A DNA stretch of 64,000 nucleotides from Candidatus Falkowbacteria bacterium (lineage in GTDB: Bacteria > Patescibacteriota > Patescibacteriia > Patescibacteriales > WJLG01): positions 261,618 to 325,617 of the forward strand of contig CAVVFV010000010.1 in the NCBI GenBank assembly GCA_963747695.1. Reading direction: 5' to 3'. The notes beneath the pieces were generated by a model. That model was not told the origin of the DNA and did not search any database. It was given only the letters and a program-made list of their open reading frames with translations. The stretch's first letter is position 1; the number at the start of each line of letters is the position of its first letter. Below are positions 37,486 through 43,124 of the stretch, one piece after another. The position numbers were made by a program, and so were the translations under genes.

Positions 37486-38382
37486 CTACGAATTAATAAA
37501 TGGATTTGGTTGATTAAAATCCGGCAAAAATATTTCGCCCGCTTCCGGCTCCTGTGTCCAGCCATTCTCCAGTCCAAGTTCAATTTTTTTCTTTTCCGCC
37601 GCCGCGATTTCTTCGGGCGATATTTGCCGGCTCAATTCCGGAAATTCGGCCGCGCGATTCACCCCGCCTTTTCCGGAAAGGGAGGGGTAAACCGGGAAAT
37701 ACTGGCTCATCAAACTCAAATGGATTTTTTTATCAATAGCGGCGATCTTTTCCAGCGCAGAAAAAGTATTGGGCAAATTATTCGGCAATATCATGTGCCG
37801 AATGATCAAACCTTTTTTGGCCAAGCTATTATCATCAACAGCCAATAAACCAACTTGCCGATACATTTCCCTGATCGCCTTATCCGCCACCTCGGAATAC
37901 TTTGGCGCGTGCGAATATTTCGCCGCCGCGACATCGTCCCCATATTTAAAATCGGGGAGATAAATATCAATCAACCCTGCTAAATCTTTAATCGCCTCGA
38001 CCGATTCATAAGCGTTGGAATTCCAAGCCAGCGGAATTTTTAATCCTTTTTCTTTGGCCAGAACAATCGCCTGCTTTATTTCCCGCCGCCACGGTGTGGG
38101 AGTCACTAAATCAATATTAGCCGCTCCCTGCTTTTGCAGATCCAACATTATTTGTGCCAATTCTTCGACCGAATATTCTTTGCCCAAATTTTCCCAACTG
38201 ATCTGCCAATTCTGGCAAAAAACGCAATGCAAATTACAGCCGGAAAAGAATATCGTCCCCGCTCCGAATTTCTCCCCTCCTTCCGAAGGAGGGGTTTGGG
38301 GGTGGTTTGCCTGTCCGACTAGCGGCGGTTCCTCGCCGAAATGCTTGCCGAACCAAGCAATTTTGATTTTTCTTTCAGCCAT
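37486..38382 (-). CDS. Radical SAM protein (PflX/PflA-like), carrying two palindrome-encoded in-frame inserts
   Basis: GCNLHCVFCQNWQIS CxxxCxxC motif. The inserts PPSEGGEKF and SLSGKGGVNRA coincide with GC-rich palindromes. Confidence 0.75.
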   Translation of the reverse strand: MAERKIKIAWFGKHFGEEPPLVGQANHPQTPPSEGGEKFGAGTIFFSGCNLHCVFCQNWQISWENLGKEYSVEELAQIMLDLQKQGAANIDLVTPTPWRREIKQAIVLAKEKGLKIPLAWNSNAYESVEAIKDLAGLIDIYLPDFKYGDDVAAAKYSHAPKYSEVADKAIREMYRQVGLLAVDDNSLAKKGLIIRHMILPNNLPNTFSALEKIAAIDKKIHLSLMSQYFPVYPSLSGKGGVNRAAEFPELSRQISPEEIAAAEKKKIELGLENGWTQEPEAGEIFLPDFNQPNPFINS

Positions 38383-38429
38383 ACTTAAAGCTTACAACAA
38401 AAGGCGTTCCAATGAAACGCCCTCTGCCC

Positions 38430-38795
38430 TTGTCGGGGTACTGGGATTCGGTCACGGCTCTCGTCGGCTTCCGCCTCCTCGGCCGCGAACCCCGCCTCGC
38501 GATGCGGCTCGCCAAATGCTCGCCACATATCGCTCCGGCATTCAAATCCCATCGCGAGCCAAGCAGTTGGCTCGCTTTACCCCGACAAAAAAACGGCTTA
38601 GGCCGTTTTTCCTTGTCGGGGTACTGGGATTCGGTCACGGCTCTCGTCGGCTTCCGCCTCCTCGGCCGCGAACCCCGCCTCGCGATGCGGCTCGCCAAAT
38701 GCTCGCCACATATCGCTCCGGCATTCAAATCCCATCGCGAGCCAAGCAGTTGGCTCGCTTTACCCCGACAAAAAAACGGCTTAGGCCGTTTTTCC
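38430..38795 (-). repeat. Tandem array (2 x 183 bp, identical) of tRNA-linked GC-rich element, subfamily 1
   Basis: Period 183 bp measured at 38430, 38613 and 38796. Each unit carries tRNA-Pro acceptor strands, a T-loop copy and a terminator-like hairpin. Confidence 0.85.
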
Positions 38796-38798
38796 TTG

Positions 38799-38884
38799 TC
38801 GGGGTACTGGGATTCGAACCCAGAACCTTCCACCTACGTTCCGAGGCGGAACTTCGGTGGACGCAGCACGCACCTTCGTGAAAA
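38799..38884 (-). pseudogene. tRNA-Pro 3' half (anticodon stem 3' strand to acceptor end) with a 38-nt hairpin insertion
   Basis: Minus strand reads GGTGCGTG + TCCACC...GGTGGA hairpin + AGGTT-CTGGG-TTCGAAT-CCCAG-TACCCCG-A. No matching 5' half adjoins it. Confidence 0.7.
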
Positions 38885-38961
38885 TGGTCGGGGTACTGGG
38901 ACTCGAACCCAGAACCTCACGCACCCGAAGCGTGCGCCATAGCCAATTAGGCCATACCCCG
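38885..38961 (-). tRNA. tRNA-Pro(CGG), CCA encoded
   Basis: Acceptor CGGGGTA/TACCCCG, anticodon arm CACGC-TTCGGGT-GCGTG, T arm CTGGG-TTCGAGT-CCCAG, A73, CCA. Confidence 0.9.
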
Positions 38962-39028
38962 ACCATTTTCGCGAATTTAAAAAATAATGTAAGCACCTTT
39001 ACCCGCCGAAGCGATTAGCGAAGGCGGG

Positions 39029-39064
39029 CGAAGCGTGCGCCATAGCCAATTAGGCCATACCCCG
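39029..39064 (-). pseudogene. tRNA-Pro 5' fragment (first 36 nt)
   Basis: 36/36 identical to 38926-38961. It then diverges into the hairpin CCCGCC...GGCGGG. Confidence 0.75.
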
Positions 39065-39188
39065 AAAAAACAATTAAAAATTAAAAATGAAAAGTTAAAA
39101 ATTTAATATATAATTTCAGCCTACAGTATAAACAGTCTGTCGTCAATAAAAATATTTTTAATTTTGCATTTTTAATTTTTAATTGTTT

Positions 39189-39273
39189 TGGTGGGCATGG
39201 AGAGACTCGAACTCTCAAGGATTGCTCCGTACGCACCTGAAGCGTATGCGTCTACCAATTTCGCCACATGCCC
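39189..39273 (-). tRNA. tRNA-Leu(CAG), CCA encoded
   Basis: Acceptor GGGCATG/CATGCCC, anticodon arm TACGC-TTCAGGT-GCGTA, long variable arm, T arm GAGAG-TTCGAGT-CTCTC, A73, CCA. Confidence 0.9.
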
Positions 39274-39382
39274 GAAATAGTATCTCGTATTTAGTATTTG
39301 GTATTTCGTATATAAATTTTCTGTCTGGCTCGTTCTTCTTCAAATAAAATTAAAAATCAAAAAACTGATTTTCGATTTTATG

Positions 39383-39455
39383 AGCGGGAGACGGGGCTTG
39401 AACCCGCTGCCTCAACCTTGGGAAGGTCGCGCTCTACCAGATGAGCTACTCCCGC
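39383..39455 (-). tRNA. tRNA-Gly(CCC)
   Basis: Acceptor GCGGGAG/CTCCCGC, anticodon arm CGACC-TTCCCAA-GGTTG, T loop TTCAAGC, U73. No encoded CCA. Confidence 0.9.
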
Positions 39456-39501
39456 CTCTCATCGTCTTGTTTGCTCGTCCGCCTTGGGCGGAGGAAGCAA
39501 A

Positions 39502-39526
39502 CATTCTACCGTTGAATTACTCCCGC
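39502..39526 (-). pseudogene. tRNA 5' fragment (Gly-like acceptor plus D arm)
   Basis: Minus strand reads GCGGGAGTAATTCAACGGTAGAATG, followed by the palindrome TTTGCT..TCCGCC-CAAG-GCGGA..AGCAAA. No T arm. Confidence 0.6.
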
Positions 39527-39569
39527 CGTCATTCGCCGGAACCTCAGCGAAGGCGAACTTCGCCAAATC

Positions 39570-40253
39570 CTAATTATCAATATGTTTAATTCCAATTTCC
39601 GGAAAAACAACCTCTTCGCCAGTCGAAAGCAGAAAAGCCACGGTTGCCGCAACTTCTTTCGTATCTAAGGCATTATTCATGTCTTTTTTTAAGCCCATCT
39701 TTTCAAACATCTTTGTTTTCATTTTTCCCAAATAGAGACCAGTAACCCTAATATGATATTTTGATAATTCCTCCTGAATCGATTTAGTAAATCCGGTTAT
39801 TGCCCATTTGGAGGCGGTGTAAACGGATCTATCCGCCTTGGCGTAAAGCCCTGCTTGCGAAACGACATTGATGATAAAACCATTCTTTTGTTTTTTCATA
39901 ATCGGCACAACTTTTTGAGTAAGCAAAATTGTTCCTGTCGTGTTAACAGCGATTACTTCTTTAATTTTTTCGGCGTCACTTTGGTCAATGCCTCCCTCAA
40001 TCCAAAGCCCGGCATTATTTATCAAGCAATCAATTCTCTGATATTTTTTCTCAATTGCGCTTACCGCCGATTCAATTTCCTTTTCACTGGAAATATCACA
40101 AACCAAAAAATCGCATCCTAATTCTTTGGCCGTCTGTTTCAACTTGACGCTGTCATGAGCAAGCAAAATAACACTGTAATCGGATGCCAATTTTTGGGCA
40201 ATCTCCCTGCCTAGCCCATCGCTACCTCCGGAAATGACGACTACTTTTTTCAT
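39570..40253 (-). CDS. Short-chain dehydrogenase/reductase (SDR) family oxidoreductase
   Basis: SGGSDGLG cofactor motif, NNAG, and YTASKWA catalytic YxxxK. Confidence 0.85.
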   Translation of the reverse strand: MKKVVVISGGSDGLGREIAQKLASDYSVILLAHDSVKLKQTAKELGCDFLVCDISSEKEIESAVSAIEKKYQRIDCLINNAGLWIEGGIDQSDAEKIKEVIAVNTTGTILLTQKVVPIMKKQKNGFIINVVSQAGLYAKADRSVYTASKWAITGFTKSIQEELSKYHIRVTGLYLGKMKTKMFEKMGLKKDMNNALDTKEVAATVAFLLSTGEEVVFPEIGIKHIDN

Positions 40254-40272
40254 AGATAATAATATTATCTTG

Positions 40273-40343
40273 TGGACCTAGGCGGAGTCGAACCGCCGCC
40301 TCTGCAATGCGAATGCAACGTCATACCGCTAGACTATAGGCCC
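40273..40343 (-). tRNA. tRNA-Ala(CGC)
   Basis: Acceptor GGGCCTA/TAGGTCC with G3:U70, anticodon loop TTCGCAT, T arm GGCGG-TTCGACT-CCGCC, A73. No encoded CCA. Confidence 0.9.
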
Positions 40344-40351
40344 GCAAACTT

Positions 40352-40476
40352 TGTGGACAATACTGGGCTCGGTCACAGCTCTCGCTCGCTTCCGCTCGCT
40401 CGGCCGCGACCCCGCCTCGCCGTCTTGCTCGCCAAATAGCTCGCAAGACATGGCTCCGGCATTCGAGCCCTGCCCC
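40352..40476 (-). repeat. tRNA-linked GC-rich element, subfamily 1 (solo copy belonging to tRNA-Val)
   Basis: Its first 21 nt (TTGTGGACAATACTGGGCTCG) equal the tRNA-Val 3' end at 40511-40531. The core is collinear with the 183-bp units. It ends in GGCATTCGAGCCC, an inverted tRNA-Val T loop. Confidence 0.8.
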
Positions 40477-40513
40477 TAAAATATTTATCTGACGAAGGTC
40501 AGTAAATATTTTG

Positions 40514-40587
40514 TGGACAATACTGGGCTCGAACCAGTGACCTCTGCAATGTGAATGCAGCGCTCTAACCAACTGAGCTAATTGTCC
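40514..40587 (-). tRNA. tRNA-Val(CAC)
   Basis: Acceptor GGACAAT/ATTGTCC, anticodon arm CTGCA-TTCACAT-TGCAG, T arm ACTGG-TTCGAGC-CCAGT, A73. Confidence 0.9.
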
Positions 40588-40607
40588 GAAACGCCAGAAA
40601 ATTAGCG

Positions 40608-40670
40608 TGTCGGGGTACTGGCCCCGCCAGCCGGCGGGGTCTCCGCTTCGCTCCGAGAATCTCACCACTC
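40608..40670 (-). repeat. Degenerate element remnant ending in a tRNA-Pro-type 3' end
   Basis: TGTCGGGGTACTGG (as in the 38430 array) is followed by the GC-rich hairpin CCCCGCC-AGCC-GGCGGGG. Confidence 0.5.
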
Positions 40671-40675
40671 ACTTG

Positions 40676-40746
40676 TCGGGCTGCGCGGAATCGAACCGCG
40701 GCTACATGCACCCCATGCACGCGTACTACCATTATACGACAGCCCG
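40676..40746 (-). tRNA. tRNA-Pro(GGG)
   Basis: Acceptor CGGGCTG/CAGCCCG, anticodon arm CGTGC-ATGGGGT-GCATG, T arm CGCGG-TTCGATT-CCGCG, A73. Confidence 0.85.
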
Positions 40747-40760
40747 CTATTAAGGCGCGC

Positions 40761-40806
40761 CTGTCCCGCCTTCACGGCGGGATACTACCGCTATACTATA
40801 CCCCGC
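40761..40806 (-). pseudogene. tRNA 5' fragment (GCGGGGTA acceptor plus D-arm-like) fused to a GC hairpin
   Basis: Minus strand reads GCGGGGTATAGTATAGCGGTAGTA, then TCCCGCC-GTGAA-GGCGGGA. No T arm or 3' acceptor strand adjoins it. Confidence 0.55.
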
Positions 40807-40932
40807 CCCTCACCATTTTTCACAAAAAAATCGAACGCCTCCGTAAACTAAAAACGACCTTTTGAATAGTTTACGAAAAATGGTGAGGGGTCGTTTTTAA
40901 TACTATAAAACTTTACCAAAAAAAGCAAGAAA

Positions 40933-41094
40933 TCAGTCTCTTGACTGGAAAAAATCGCAATGGCCGTTGGGCGGGACTTCGCATTTGGCCTCCGAGCAGG
41001 CTCCGGTTTCCGGATCAAAACCGGTGCAACGGGAACATTCATTGTCGGGATTGGACCAGTCGGCGACAAAATTGGCTTCGATTTCGTGAGACAT
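40933..41094 (-). CDS. Small cysteine-rich protein (53 aa), HiPIP-like C-x2-C...C...C pattern
   Basis: Hand-translated as MSHEIEANFVADWSNPDNECSRCTGFDPETGACSEAKCEVPPNGHCDFFQSRD. Below the 60-aa ORF-track cutoff. The competing 73-aa ORF in another frame looks non-protein-like. Confidence 0.45.
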   Translation of the reverse strand: MSHEIEANFVADWSNPDNECSRCTGFDPETGACSEAKCEVPPNGHCDFFQSRD

Positions 41095-41125
41095 ACTTAT
41101 TATCAGATTAATTTTTAATACTGTA

Positions 41126-42154
41126 TTATTGCGCGGTCGAGGTTGCCTCCGGCGTTAAAATTTTGAAACTCTGGGCCATGCCTTCCAGAACCAGATTGAT
41201 CTTTAAGCGATCAAACTGCTTGATCCCCTGTTCGGGAGGGTAATTCAAAATATCGTTGGAATGGATGATCGACTCGACGGCATAGCATTGGCCATTGTAA
41301 ACAGTCCGGTAACTGGTGACATCGTAATAATTTCCAACGCCGGCGTCGGTGAAAATTATTTTGGTGAAATTGCGGTTGCCGATTATCACCTTGGTGGTGG
41401 TGGCAAAATTGCCAAAGTCCGAGATCAGGCAATTCTTGACCGCGCCGGGATCGGCGCTTGTCCCCACCGAAAATTTGGCTTCGCCGAAATTAGTTCCCGG
41501 CATAAATGAGCGGGGAATATTCACGACCGCCAGCAATAGACCAGTGCTGGAGGAATTATAACTCCAGTCTTGGGAAAAACCGATTTCTCCGCCGGAGAGA
41601 ACGAATTGGCTGGGATGGGAAAAAGAGAAAGTATTTTCCTCGTCCGTATATGTATTGATATCTCCGGAAGATGTCTGGTTGCCGGCCACGCAATTGGTAT
41701 AGGTAGTAATATCTTTTTGCGTCAAGAAAGCGTTATCGCCCTTGCTTACCAGAACCGTCGTCCCCGATTCATAGCGGATCCCCGAACCGGACCTAACTTG
41801 CGGCAAGGTCGTCGTACTGCCGTCTTTAAAGATCAGACTGACCGAACTCGAACCGTAATTAGCGCGCAGCACGCCCTCCTGACAAAAATATTTGATGATA
41901 TTAGAACTGGTGGCCGCCGTGCAATCCTCTTCCCAAGGCCGCAGGCATTTCTGCTTGACTTCGCACCAAGAATATCCGGCTGAACCGATACACCCGTGCG
42001 CGTCACGGTCATTGCCGACTAATGATCCGGCTGGAGTAGGATTACTCATCTTTTCCAGCCAGGGGAATTTTTGCCGGTTAAGATACAGATATCCGCCGCC
42101 GACAACCAAGACAATAATAATGATCAAAACAAAGGTTAAAAATTTATCTTTCAT
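41126..42154 (-). CDS. Membrane-anchored exported protein with MliC-like (lysozyme-inhibitor fold) domain
   Basis: N-terminal TM anchor. The central segment LRANYGSSSVSLIFKDGSTTTLPQVRSGSGIRYESG..VLVSKGDNAFL matches the MliC pattern. Confidence 0.55.
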   Translation of the reverse strand: MKDKFLTFVLIIIIVLVVGGGYLYLNRQKFPWLEKMSNPTPAGSLVGNDRDAHGCIGSAGYSWCEVKQKCLRPWEEDCTAATSSNIIKYFCQEGVLRANYGSSSVSLIFKDGSTTTLPQVRSGSGIRYESGTTVLVSKGDNAFLTQKDITTYTNCVAGNQTSSGDINTYTDEENTFSFSHPSQFVLSGGEIGFSQDWSYNSSSTGLLLAVVNIPRSFMPGTNFGEAKFSVGTSADPGAVKNCLISDFGNFATTTKVIIGNRNFTKIIFTDAGVGNYYDVTSYRTVYNGQCYAVESIIHSNDILNYPPEQGIKQFDRLKINLVLEGMAQSFKILTPEATSTAQ

Positions 42155-42214
42155 AGGTTTAATGATGTGTTTAATTACGCCTCAATTATAGCAGCTTTTA
42201 GATTTAAAAAACAA

Positions 42215-42814
42215 CCTGACGCAGGTCGGACTGATTCGGTCACGGCTCTCACTCGCTTCCGCCTCCTCGGCCTCGACCCCGGCTCGCGGTGCTCGGCGCC
42301 GGAATGCGCCTCGCACAACGCTGCGCCTTTCGAATCCTCTCATTTTCCATTCTAACTTAAAAGACCTGACGCAGGTCGGACTGATTCGGTCACGGCTCTC
42401 GTCGGCTTCCGCCTCCTCGGCCTCGACCCCGGCTCGCGGTGCTCGGCGCCGGAATGCGCCTCGCACAACGCTGCGCCTTTCGAATCCTCTCATTTTCCAT
42501 TCTAACTTAAAAGACCTGACGCAGGTCGGACTGATTCGGTCACGGCTCTCGTCGGCTTCCGCCTCCTCGGCCTCGACCCCGGCTCGCGGTGCTCGGCGCC
42601 GGAATGCGCCTCGCACAACGCTGCGCCTTTCGAATCCTCTCATTTTCCATTCTAACTTAAAAGACCTGACGCAGGTCGGACTGATTCGGTCACGGCTCTC
42701 GTCGGCTTCCGCCTCCTCGGCCTCGACCCCGGCTCGCGGTGCTCGGCGCCGGAATGCGCCTCGCACAACGCTGCGCCTTTCGAATCCTCTCATTTTCCAT
42801 TCTAACTTAAAAGA
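42215..42814 (-). repeat. Tandem array (4 x 150 bp) of tRNA-linked GC-rich element, subfamily 1 (tRNA-Ser copy)
   Basis: Period 150 bp measured at 42215, 42365, 42515, 42665 and 42815. Copies 2-4 are identical. A 40-nt run is identical to the 183-bp units. Each unit carries an inverted 15-nt copy of the tRNA-Ser T-loop/acceptor region. Confidence 0.85.
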
Positions 42815-42843
42815 CCTGACGCAGGTCAGGTCTTTTAAGTTAG

Positions 42844-42930
42844 CGGAGATGAGAGGATTCGAACCTCTGATGCCCTTACGGACATACCGCATTTCGAGTG
42901 CGGCCCATTCGACCACTCTGGCACATCTCC
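42844..42930 (-). tRNA. tRNA-Ser(CGA)
   Basis: Acceptor GGAGATG/CATCTCC, anticodon arm CCGCA-CTCGAAA-TGCGG, long variable arm, T arm AGAGG-TTCGAAT-CCTCT, G73. Confidence 0.9.
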
Positions 42931-43124
42931 ATTTTTTAATTACAAATTATGAATTATTAATTATAAATTTTATGGATATTAGTTAATCTACTATTTAAAC
43001 TACAAAGAGTCAATATTGCTAATTTGCCAAAATTTTTTAATACCCGCTTTTGACAAAATTCGACGCGGGTGATAATTTAAAGCGTTGATCTTTGCTTGAC
43101 TGAACATTTTCCTGGAGGTAAAAA

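Follow-up and report, generated by a model that had tools for sequence, protein, structure and literature searches.

The DNA analyzed here is a stretch of 64,000 nucleotides (nt; hereafter the window) from contig CAVVFV010000010.1 of a Candidatus Falkowbacteria bacterium, and the subject is a short GC-rich element lying between its genes for tRNA-Val(CAC) and tRNA-Ala(CGC). Pfam scans of the open reading frames (ORFs) identified the window as a segment of a bacterial chromosome, encoding PolA, GuaA, PurL, a MurD-like ligase and TruB. The minus strand holds all 11 tRNA genes of the window and nearly all of its genes, and the element is read on this strand as well, that is, on the tRNA-sense strand. 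From the host tRNA onward, the locus is composed as follows.

40513-40587, minus strand: host tRNA-Val(CAC) gene (ARAGORN; Rfam tRNA model, 70.9 bits).
40510-40531, minus strand: proximal copy "a" of a direct repeat, tRNA-Val from C56 plus 3 nt of trailer (sequence).
40478-40512, minus strand: terminator-like hairpin AAAATATTTACTGAC-CTTC-GTCAGATAAATATTTT (sequence comparison).
40462-40476, minus strand: segment a', GGGGCAGGGCTCGAA (sense-strand text GGGGCAGGGCUCGAA; sequence and predicted fold).
40372-40461, minus strand: GC-rich conserved core of 90 nt, a three-way junction (covariation, RNAalifold and minimum free energy).
40350-40371, minus strand: distal copy a2, 22 nt identical to tRNA-Val, starting at C56 and reaching 3 nt beyond the discriminator (sequence).
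40272-40343, minus strand: tRNA-Ala(CGC), the next gene of the tRNA cluster (ARAGORN; Rfam).

The element occupies the tRNA-tRNA spacer, with tRNA-Ala beginning 6 nt beyond a2. The initial annotation of this DNA had noticed that 40351-40371 (TTGTGGACAATACTGGGCTCG) is identical to 40511-40531 and that the identity stops inside the T loop; both observations were confirmed, the true extent being 22 nt (40350-40371 = 40510-40531) and the break falling between U55 and C56. Because tRNA-Val and tRNA-Ala are on the minus strand, the repeat appears in the window as the reverse complement of the tRNA 3' part. A 14-mer from the tRNA-Val 3' end occurs twice in the 64 kb, in the two repeat copies only. 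Within a', GGGCTCGAA is the exact complement of tRNA-Val U54-C62, and in the predicted fold GGGCA pairs with the acceptor 3' strand UGUCC; a2 supplies the 3' strand in both closing helices, P3 and P1. The terminal helices proposed earlier, GGGCTCG/CGAGCCC at tRNA-Val, GGGATTTG/CGAATCCC at tRNA-Pro and GATTCG/CGAATC at tRNA-Ser, were all recovered. The AT-rich hairpin described in the same annotation is present at 40478-40512; it does not, however, separate the element from tRNA-Val as had been stated, since it belongs to the element.

The core is repeated elsewhere in the window. The core marker GGTCACRGCTCTCG matched eight times, against 0.38 matches expected, and seven of these matches are genuine family copies: one at tRNA-Val, two in tandem at tRNA-Pro and four in tandem at tRNA-Ser. 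The earlier claim that the Val copy shares its core with the Pro-linked units is thus borne out by the marker. The eighth match (57956) has two mismatches, was not seen by the covariance model described below and was taken as chance. The two arrays are the following.

38428-38816, minus strand: two identical tandem units of 183 nt, long type (Tandem Repeats Finder; covariance model).
42214-42827, minus strand: four tandem units of 150 nt, short type (Tandem Repeats Finder; covariance model).

Units within the tandem arrays are 99-100% identical according to Tandem Repeats Finder. The covariance model matched the Pro array at 38431-38566 and 38614-38749, and each Pro unit runs from a terminator hairpin through an acceptor 5'-like strand (GUCGGGGUA), the hairpin P2 (GCGAGCCAA-CUGC-UUGGCUCGC) and GGGAUUUG to the core and CGAAUCCCAGUACCCCGACA. 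These units are attached to a 3'-half fragment of tRNA-Pro (38785-38872) with the T loop UUCGAAU, where the intact gene has UUCGAGU. The Ser array sits downstream of tRNA-Ser(CGA) (42843-42930). Its a' (AUGAGAGGAUUCGAA) is complementary to tRNA-Ser at 15 of 15 positions, its distal copy is reduced to CGAAUC, and a terminator-like hairpin closes every unit.

About a dozen further loci were recovered from Saccharibacteria/Patescibacteria genomes and metagenomes, downstream of tRNAs for Ser, Met, Asp, Gly, Val, Arg and Lys; wherever the source genome is named, it belongs to the Patescibacteria. Exact patterns were used to scan the genome and metagenome collections, so the size and range of the family are underestimated. 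A core pattern of 26 positions was found in 3 of 185,579 species genomes, of which two are Saccharibacteria and the third a Patescibacteria assembly. Additional loci came from a six-frame profile search of a protein collection, which can recover them because gene callers translate the GC-rich units, and from a covariance model, R1, built from ten members, whose E-values are rough. When 1.84 billion representative proteins were searched with a profile, ten more "proteins" emerged, each consisting of the translated core (..PRGGVATEEAEADESCDR) and a differing tail, and three of them led to loci L016, L017 and L019. The loci are listed with the search that found them.

L001: placed before a tRNA-Val and carrying the 3' end of another tRNA, with a nested insertion (pattern scan).
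L002: tRNA-Ser(CGA) upstream (pattern scan).
L003: tRNA-Met upstream, with a nested 76-nt insert that splits the distal repeat (pattern scan).
L005: tRNA-Asp upstream (pattern scan).
L006 (the same sequence as L007): an internally deleted copy after tRNA-Val(TAC) (pattern scan).
L006/L007: a diverged member after tRNA-Gly(GCC) (R1).
L008: tRNA-Asp upstream, with a truncated second copy (six-frame profile search).
L009: tRNA-Ser(GGA) upstream (six-frame profile search).
L010/L011: between IS3-type copies, without a tRNA (six-frame profile search).
L016: tRNA-Arg(GCG) upstream, the unit at 53-300 being chimeric (protein profile search).
L017, 2864-3470: a full and a truncated unit after tRNA-Arg(TCG), and a truncated unit after tRNA-Lys(CTT) (protein profile search).
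L019: a short-type unit with a decayed upstream tRNA and an a2 that ends in CCA (protein profile search).
L020, 2838-3202: two units (one truncated) at the margin of the stored portion of a 34.7-kb IMG/VR contig (R1).

Another pattern match, L004, lies in a GC-rich coding region and was set aside as a chance match. In L010 (700-1250) and L011, an intact long-type unit stands between inverted IS3-type ends (..GGGTACGGATCA / TGATCCGTACCC..). L001, L010 and L019 have no functional tRNA upstream. Among annotated phages and plasmids, no match to the Pro unit was found by BLAST. Two core patterns had no match in viral contigs, and a 16-mer was present in 25 such contigs, of which the covariance model accepted L020 as the sole true member; its neighbours (an epimerase, a deaminase and a GDSL lipase) look cellular. 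All relatives are on the tRNA strand. The core end, ..GUGAC (GAAGC in L010), stands directly before the C(G/A)A of the tRNA copy everywhere, and the insertion junction is therefore always U55|C56.

A complete unit thus has, in order, a hairpin (usually), a', a GC-rich core and a2. The last directly repeats the tRNA, starting at C56 and stopping just beyond the 3' end, and a' is complementary to the 3' half of the T loop, the 3' strand of the T stem and the 3' strand of the acceptor, a' sometimes being split by a conserved hairpin (..AA-CUGC-UU..). The center of the terminator-like hairpin, CTGAC-CTKC-GTCAG, recurs at the Ser and Val loci of the window (with a CUUC loop at Val), in L005 behind tRNA-Asp and in L019, and L008 has the compensatory form CUGGC-CUGC-GCCAG. 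Because this center recurs behind unrelated tRNAs in other genomes, the hairpin must travel as part of the element. In L017 the element begins right after the discriminator, without the hairpin. Together, the 3' part of the tRNA, the hairpin and a' form an imperfect palindrome of 40-45 nt starting at T54.

The predicted fold of the family comprises P2, found in the long type only, with the apex given above; P3, formed by a' and a2; P4 (GCC/GGC); P5, made up of GCG/CGC, an AU bulge, seven pairs, a tandem G·A and GC/GC; and the hairpin P7/P6 (GUCGC-GGC-CGAGGAGGC-GGAA-GCCGACGAG-A-GCC-GUGAC). In the Val core, the P4/P5 arm has the AU bulge, the tandem G·A and the apex GAGC..GCGA, and the P7/P6 arm is GUCGC-GGC-CGAGCGAGC-GGAA-GCGAGCGAG-A-GCU-GUGAC, with tandem G·A pairs, the GGAA loop and a conserved G·U. 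Covariation was first evaluated on a plain MAFFT alignment of ten members with a hand-drawn structure, using 500 shuffles and slid partners as controls. In this alignment 82% of cells are paired (26-37% with partners slid), and 20 pairs show double changes, against 9.3±1.7 in the shuffles, none of which reached 20, and 3-10 with partners slid. Folding with RNAalifold, a check that the initial annotation had proposed, returned the same P3, P4, P5 and P7/P6 when no structure was supplied, with 16 covarying pairs. When 15 distinct sequences were aligned on the model, double changes were present at 26 of the 42 pairs (11.3±1.7 shuffled, 6-10 slid); such an alignment leans towards the model, and the MAFFT result agrees with it.

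Folding energies also distinguish the two strands. For the Val copy, the minimum free energy is -66.1 kcal/mol on the sense strand (z -5.28) and -43.3 kcal/mol on the antisense strand (z -1.18). In all 11 members tested, the sense strand was better by 7.5-23 kcal/mol with RNA parameters, and with DNA parameters there was almost no asymmetry. A G·U pair is conserved in 14 of the 15 sequences; at another position, G·U, G-C and A-U alternate. Judged by these models of covariation and folding, selection has maintained the core as a single-stranded fold of the tRNA-sense strand, and the folded strand is most likely RNA. Of the two possibilities raised earlier, a structured RNA closed by a T-arm-derived helix or an element bounded by inverted copies of its T-loop target, the first fits best.

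The ends of the element, in turn, follow the host. For nine loci we tabulated the identity of a2 to the tRNA, counted from C56, and the longest exact complement to the tRNA in a', both in nt.

tRNA-Val, window: a2 identity 21; a' complement 9.
tRNA-Pro, window: a2 identity 23; a' complement 9+6.
tRNA-Ser, window: a2 identity 6; a' complement 15.
L002: a2 identity 25; a' complement 7+5.
L003: a2 identity 24 (across its insert); a' complement 6+6.
L005: a2 identity 19; a' complement 7.
L006, tRNA-Gly copy: a2 identity 18; a' complement 19.
L008: a2 identity 11; a' complement 14.
L009: a2 identity 3; a' complement 10+7.

At these nine loci, a' has 6-19 consecutive bases complementary to the adjacent tRNA, and the co-variation of the end helices with the adjacent tRNA suggested in the initial annotation holds across nine tRNA species. 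In L016, outside the table, a' matches the upstream tRNA-Arg(GCG) at 12 of 12 positions, its distal copy (CGAAUCCCUCCCUUUCCGCA) comes from another tRNA and a second 3' end of the same type lies 150 nt further on; this mismatch of the ends probably reflects recombination between two elements. In most copies a' extends to the complement of the acceptor 3' strand as well. In the long type, P2 splits a' into an acceptor-like and a T-like strand, and the predicted fold stacks an acceptor-like stem on a T-stem-like helix. The departures from perfect complementarity are U·G in Pro and L002 and GAG for UCG in L009, L010 and L017, which results in a tandem G·A next to the junction. Because such departures tend to preserve pairing, a' is not merely a passive copy of the tRNA. 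There is also a weak hint, from one informative case, that a' extends past the repeat boundary into T54/T55 (GAA against UUC; GCA against UGC in L003).

It had been considered beforehand that the apparent helix partners might both simply be copied from the tRNA, with the inverted box missing in most other copies. This was looked for, and a' proved to be retained wherever the 5' part of the element survives, being absent only in L001, in the deleted copy after tRNA-Val(TAC) in L006 and in the truncated second copies of L008 and L020. Where copies differ, as in the Ser array of the window and in L009, a' follows the real upstream tRNA and not the distal copy. More generally, a' fits the real tRNA despite a decayed or foreign distal copy in the Ser array, L009, L016 and the truncated unit of L017.

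Taken together, these data lead us to favor, as somewhat more probable than all else, an undescribed family of non-coding, non-autonomous repeats of about 135-185 nt that bear a structured RNA and are lodged at tRNA 3' ends. On the sense strand, the predicted pairing of a' with a2 gives an acceptor/T-like double helix that closes the three-way junction, a structure kept up by compensatory changes; the host tRNA is left intact, the units have no coding capacity, and their distribution is patchy and multi-copy. The RNA would be made within the transcript of the tRNA cluster or from each unit to its own terminator: the Val copy and the L017 unit, the latter between tRNA-Arg and tRNA-Met, lie in tRNA-tRNA spacers, and array units each have a terminator-like hairpin at the end. 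The spread of the family, past or present, would be that of a selfish insertion joined to the tRNA at U55|C56, and the tRNA would stay intact because its full 3' end stands on both sides. Both a' and a2 would be gained by copying the target and not by point mutation, since exact complements of 12-19 nt at several unrelated tRNAs are hard to obtain otherwise. Arrays could then grow via unequal recombination between units, with the mobilizing enzyme supplied in trans. Several loci per genome, arrays, an internal deletion (the Val copy of L006), nested insertions (L003 and L001), a chimera (L016) and truncated units (L017 and L008) point, along with the patchy occurrence, to a selfish or repeat character, and the nested insertions, deletions, 99-100% identical arrays and tRNA-less copies are the picture of a decaying repeat family.

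Several points weigh against this reading. RNA is favored over single-stranded DNA more weakly than the sense strand is over its complement, as far as the folding models go. No empty site or circular junction was seen, and mobility rests on distribution and decay patterns. An empty site was sought via homologues of the neighboring SDR gene (relatives named Woesebacteria, Komeilibacteria and "Patescibacteria group", the closest 68% identical), and the neighborhoods were not syntenic, with the exception of JGI 3300075153, a 61.7-kb contig whose DNA was not readable and on which genes for MliC, SDR and radical-SAM proteins keep the relative order of the window. Pfam scans of the 64-kb window and of the flanks of L001, L002, L003, L005, L007, L008 and L020 found no recombinase, transposase or reverse transcriptase; L010/L011 lie between IS3-type copies only. 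The closing helix of a' and a2 is not always kept (the Ser array of the window, L009 and L016), and therefore the relevant pairing of a' could be with the tRNA or its gene. Finally, L017 has a truncated unit with an Arg-type a' after an intact tRNA-Lys, an arrangement at odds with a simple exchange at 55|56 in which the element brings the 3' end.

The partner that matters for a' may thus be a2, in an RNA junction, or else the tRNA or its gene. In the latter direction, it is conceivable, though we consider it unlikely, that the element is a self-propagating, nucleic-acid-guided inserter in which a' serves as the guide, by base pairing to the 3' third of a chosen tRNA or of the corresponding gene. 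Each insertion at U55|C56 would then copy the target both inverted (a') and direct (a2), re-programming the element with each jump and leaving the tRNA intact, and the chemistry would be carried out by a trans-acting enzyme or possibly by the RNA core. That the underlying mechanism is of a new kind is likewise a tentative idea.

The strand preference and the palindrome bear on whether the structured repeat acts as RNA or as DNA. A single-stranded-DNA element, whose fold would be exposed either in the template of the lagging strand or within a small circle, is an explanation that we regard as possible and rather doubtful. Here the stem formed by a, the hairpin and a' would imitate a duplex tRNA gene from position 54 to the end, the core would be a recognition or priming structure, and a recombinase or HUH nuclease of the host or a helper would exchange strands at U55|C56, as in attC, CTXphi attP(+) and IS200/IS605 ends. 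The proximal tRNA is indeed what a' fits best, forming the 40-45-nt imperfect palindrome with the hairpin; the position of the junction is fixed to the nucleotide, within the loop of a potential T-arm hairpin; there are tandem arrays and no coding capacity; and the sense strand is the G-rich one, which would be the lagging-strand template given a plus-strand GC skew that is uniformly negative across the window. However, the folding asymmetry is found with RNA parameters and hardly with DNA parameters, and the conserved G·U, the AU bulge, the GNRA-type loop and the change from UCG to GAG, giving a tandem G·A at the base of P3, are RNA-typical and would spoil the mimicry of duplex DNA. Nearby, no gene for an HUH or Xer-type enzyme or for an integron integrase was seen.

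The particular systems also differ. Like attC and CTXphi attP(+), the element has a two-segment inverted stem imitating the duplex target, an exchange point a few bases from the foot of the stem, a conserved structure with varying sequence, and arrays; unlike them, it has neither an integron integrase nor a dif site, its stem copies a tRNA gene, its structured core has no counterpart and its folding features are RNA-like. For attC in particular, the hairpin logic is present, and no GTTRRRY core was noticed and no intI was found in the window, no formal attC model having been run. An IS200/IS605 element or omega RNA was ruled out: such ends lack a direct repeat, which is present here, the left hairpin (CTGAC-CTGC-GTCAG) is unlike the right P6/P7, and there was no Rfam match. 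No TnpA or TnpB genes were found in the DNA examined, that is, 64 kb of the source genome and the flanks.

The direct repeat itself recalls the integration of mobile DNA into tRNA genes. A double-stranded mini integrative element, or the leftover attachment region of a larger one, with a tyrosine or serine integrase encoded elsewhere, is an improbable alternative; the element-borne tRNA 3' end would recombine with the tRNA gene to create the direct repeat, and the core would be cargo or an arm region. A direct repeat from the T loop to the tRNA end is the classic signature of an integrase site in tRNA genes, and a repeat of 17-25 nt, exact from C56, flanks the elements of Val, Pro, L002, L003, L005 and the Gly copy of L006. 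Repeat-bounded tandem arrays are known as well, for example in Dehalococcoides, where tandem ssrA islands use the gene for transfer-messenger RNA (tmRNA) as the attachment site (PMC3146451). In addition, the hairpin beside the proximal copy moves with the element, and the acceptor stem of the L009 tRNA-Ser has an A·C mismatch, as if its 3' end were foreign. Integrative elements in tRNA and tmRNA genes share with our family the repeat from inside the loop to the gene end, the intact tRNA, the repeat-separated arrays and a terminator-like hairpin of their own. But the units here, of 135-185 nt with the same boundaries in many genomes, carry no genes, no larger version was seen, and no integrase gene was found in or next to the element in the Pfam scans of window ORFs and flanks. 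Nor does an integrase site need an inverted tRNA 3' end or a covarying three-way junction, and in L016 and L017 intact tRNAs adjoin units with the a' or a2 of another tRNA, which they do not match. The phage and plasmid collections gave no match, and the one member at the edge of an IMG/VR contig has cellular genes beside it.

The tRNA-like appearance of the closing helices raises a third alternative, a host-serving, immobile gene for a tRNA-like small RNA, for example a processing or decoy RNA cut by RNase P/Z, that duplicates with tRNA clusters. This we consider quite unlikely. Its location inside tRNA operons (the Val-Ala spacer of the window and the Arg-Met spacer of L017), acceptor-like and T-like helices stacked as in a tRNA minihelix, a2 copies ending in CCA (as in L019) and strong selection on the structure are all in keeping with it, and an acceptor-like stem on a T-stem-like helix with a tRNA 3' end is also seen in the tRNA-like domain of tmRNA, viral 3' tRNA-like structures and YrlA. 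Unlike these RNAs, the element has no T loop, since the corresponding nucleotides are paired, so the elbow read by tRNA enzymes is absent; its helix opens into a three-way junction, and its stem sequence is copied from the neighboring tRNA. A tRNA or tmRNA proper was ruled out on the same grounds, as ARAGORN and the Rfam tRNA model (RF00005) report genuine tRNAs only and do not see the units. Moreover, the spread is patchy, host tRNAs differ between genomes, many copies are decayed, truncated or chimeric, and an exact copy of whichever tRNA adjoins calls for copying, not gene divergence.

That the units are protein-coding repeats is extremely improbable: the 150- and 183-nt units are open in several frames, gene callers annotate ORFs in them, and ORFs of 152, 176 and 244 aa span the arrays and occur in public protein sets, but several frames are open on both strands owing to GC content alone, copies differ by paired helix changes and not by third-position changes, indels between members shift the frame, the array ORFs have no Pfam domain and the "proteins" run through tRNA sequence. 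The arrays (38375-38942 and 42182-42916) are open in several frames because 183 and 150 nt are multiples of three. Public sets contain their ORFs as hypothetical proteins, one example being P0001 (176 aa).

As for the repeat family bearing a structured RNA, none of the known RNA families or mobile elements compared with it matched. At the gathering score, the matches of Rfam 15 in the window were the 11 tRNAs only; at E ≤ 10 over 38300-43000, nothing credible was found over the core, and a full-text literature search retrieved no description of such elements. Miniature inverted-repeat transposable elements (MITEs) were ruled out. With these, REPINs and the palindrome-associated transposable elements (PATEs) derived from IS200/IS605, the family has in common that it is small, non-coding, multi-copy, intergenic and decaying, with pairable ends, and presumably moved in trans; it differs in that its pairing ends change with the target tRNA in place of fixed inverted repeats, its duplication starts at a fixed tRNA position (C56) and has a variable length of 17-25 nt, and its core is a complex junction. 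The omega/reRNA of TnpB resembles it in that a scaffold stops at the element boundary and is followed by 17-25 nt of target-derived, locus-specific sequence. Here, however, the would-be guide is sequestered by a', there is a direct repeat, no TnpB, IscB or TnpA lies nearby and there is no Rfam match to IS605-orfB or HEARO.

Group I introns of Patescibacteria are, like the element, GC-rich structured RNAs tied to tRNA genes in the same phylum. A survey of tRNA introns in these bacteria (2026) reports anticodon-loop group I introns only, with no mention of the T loop or T arm (PMC13011429). These introns interrupt the anticodon loop (35/36), have at least about 200 nt and match Rfam Intron_gpI, whereas the element is shorter, leaves the tRNA uninterrupted and ends in C, not G. 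A group I intron was therefore rejected, the tRNA being intact upstream, the element ending in ..GUGAC and Intron_gpI giving no match. Other structured RNAs were rejected as well. Small self-cleaving ribozymes had no Rfam match at E ≤ 10, and their consensus counterpart here is simply a three-way junction; the CGAA that follows the last helix is similar to J4/2 of the hepatitis delta virus (HDV)-like fold, but there is no P1/P3 arrangement; GAGCCGU resembles group II domain V, yet is on the wrong strand of a longer helix. The GGAA loop is shared with the apex of signal recognition particle (SRP) RNA, without an Rfam match, and in the case of a retron non-coding RNA, tRNA-Ala or terminators follow the element and no reverse transcriptase was found in any flank examined.

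The window also has a related element with a different core.

19508-19723, minus strand: related element between tRNA-Arg(TCT) and tRNA-His (sequence comparison).

It has a palindromic hairpin, an a' (GGAAUCGAA, 19663-19671) complementary to the T loop of tRNA-Arg, and, at 19511-19527, 17 nt copied from the 3' end of tRNA-Arg. Its core is GC-rich, a P5-like module is its only likeness to the main family, and R1 did not detect it. This Arg-type element suggests a wider superfamily. In the spacer between tRNA-Pro(GGG) and tRNA-Val (40588-40674) there is a short GC-rich hairpin module that ends in CCAGUACCCCGACA, the 3' end of the other tRNA-Pro type; the module may be a heavily deleted element. 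Fragments of tRNA genes are also present. At the tRNA-Pro(CGG) locus, an exact copy of nucleotides 1-35/36 lies at 39027-39062, 66 nt upstream of the gene, and the fragment at 38785-38872 is the 3' half from the anticodon-loop G, its variable region containing a 38-nt hairpin. About 155 nt separate the two halves and hold the intact tRNA-Pro itself, and the break point 35/36 is the group I intron site reported for tRNAs of Patescibacteria (PMC13011429). Additionally, GC-rich pseudo-tRNA 5' pieces (acceptor, D arm and a stem-loop) occur at 39456-39530 and 40747-40805, directly upstream of tRNA-Gly(CCC) and tRNA-Pro(GGG).

For the annotation of these genomes, the units matter because they are miscalled as proteins in public databases (P0001-P0005 and P0126-P0135) and leave a clutter of tRNA fragments that confuses the annotation of tRNAs. 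For the biology of Patescibacteria, whose genomes are tiny and in which selfish DNA is thought to be scarce, they would represent a new family of structured RNAs or elements. The family follows an unusual rule: the closing helix is rewritten in both strands to fit the adjacent tRNA, and a junction of about 90 nt is conserved. This suggests a targeting or copying mechanism aimed at the T loop of tRNAs, which known integrases, MITEs and introns do not explain. If the guided inserter, tentative as it is, proved true, the element would be re-programmed for a new host tRNA at each jump.

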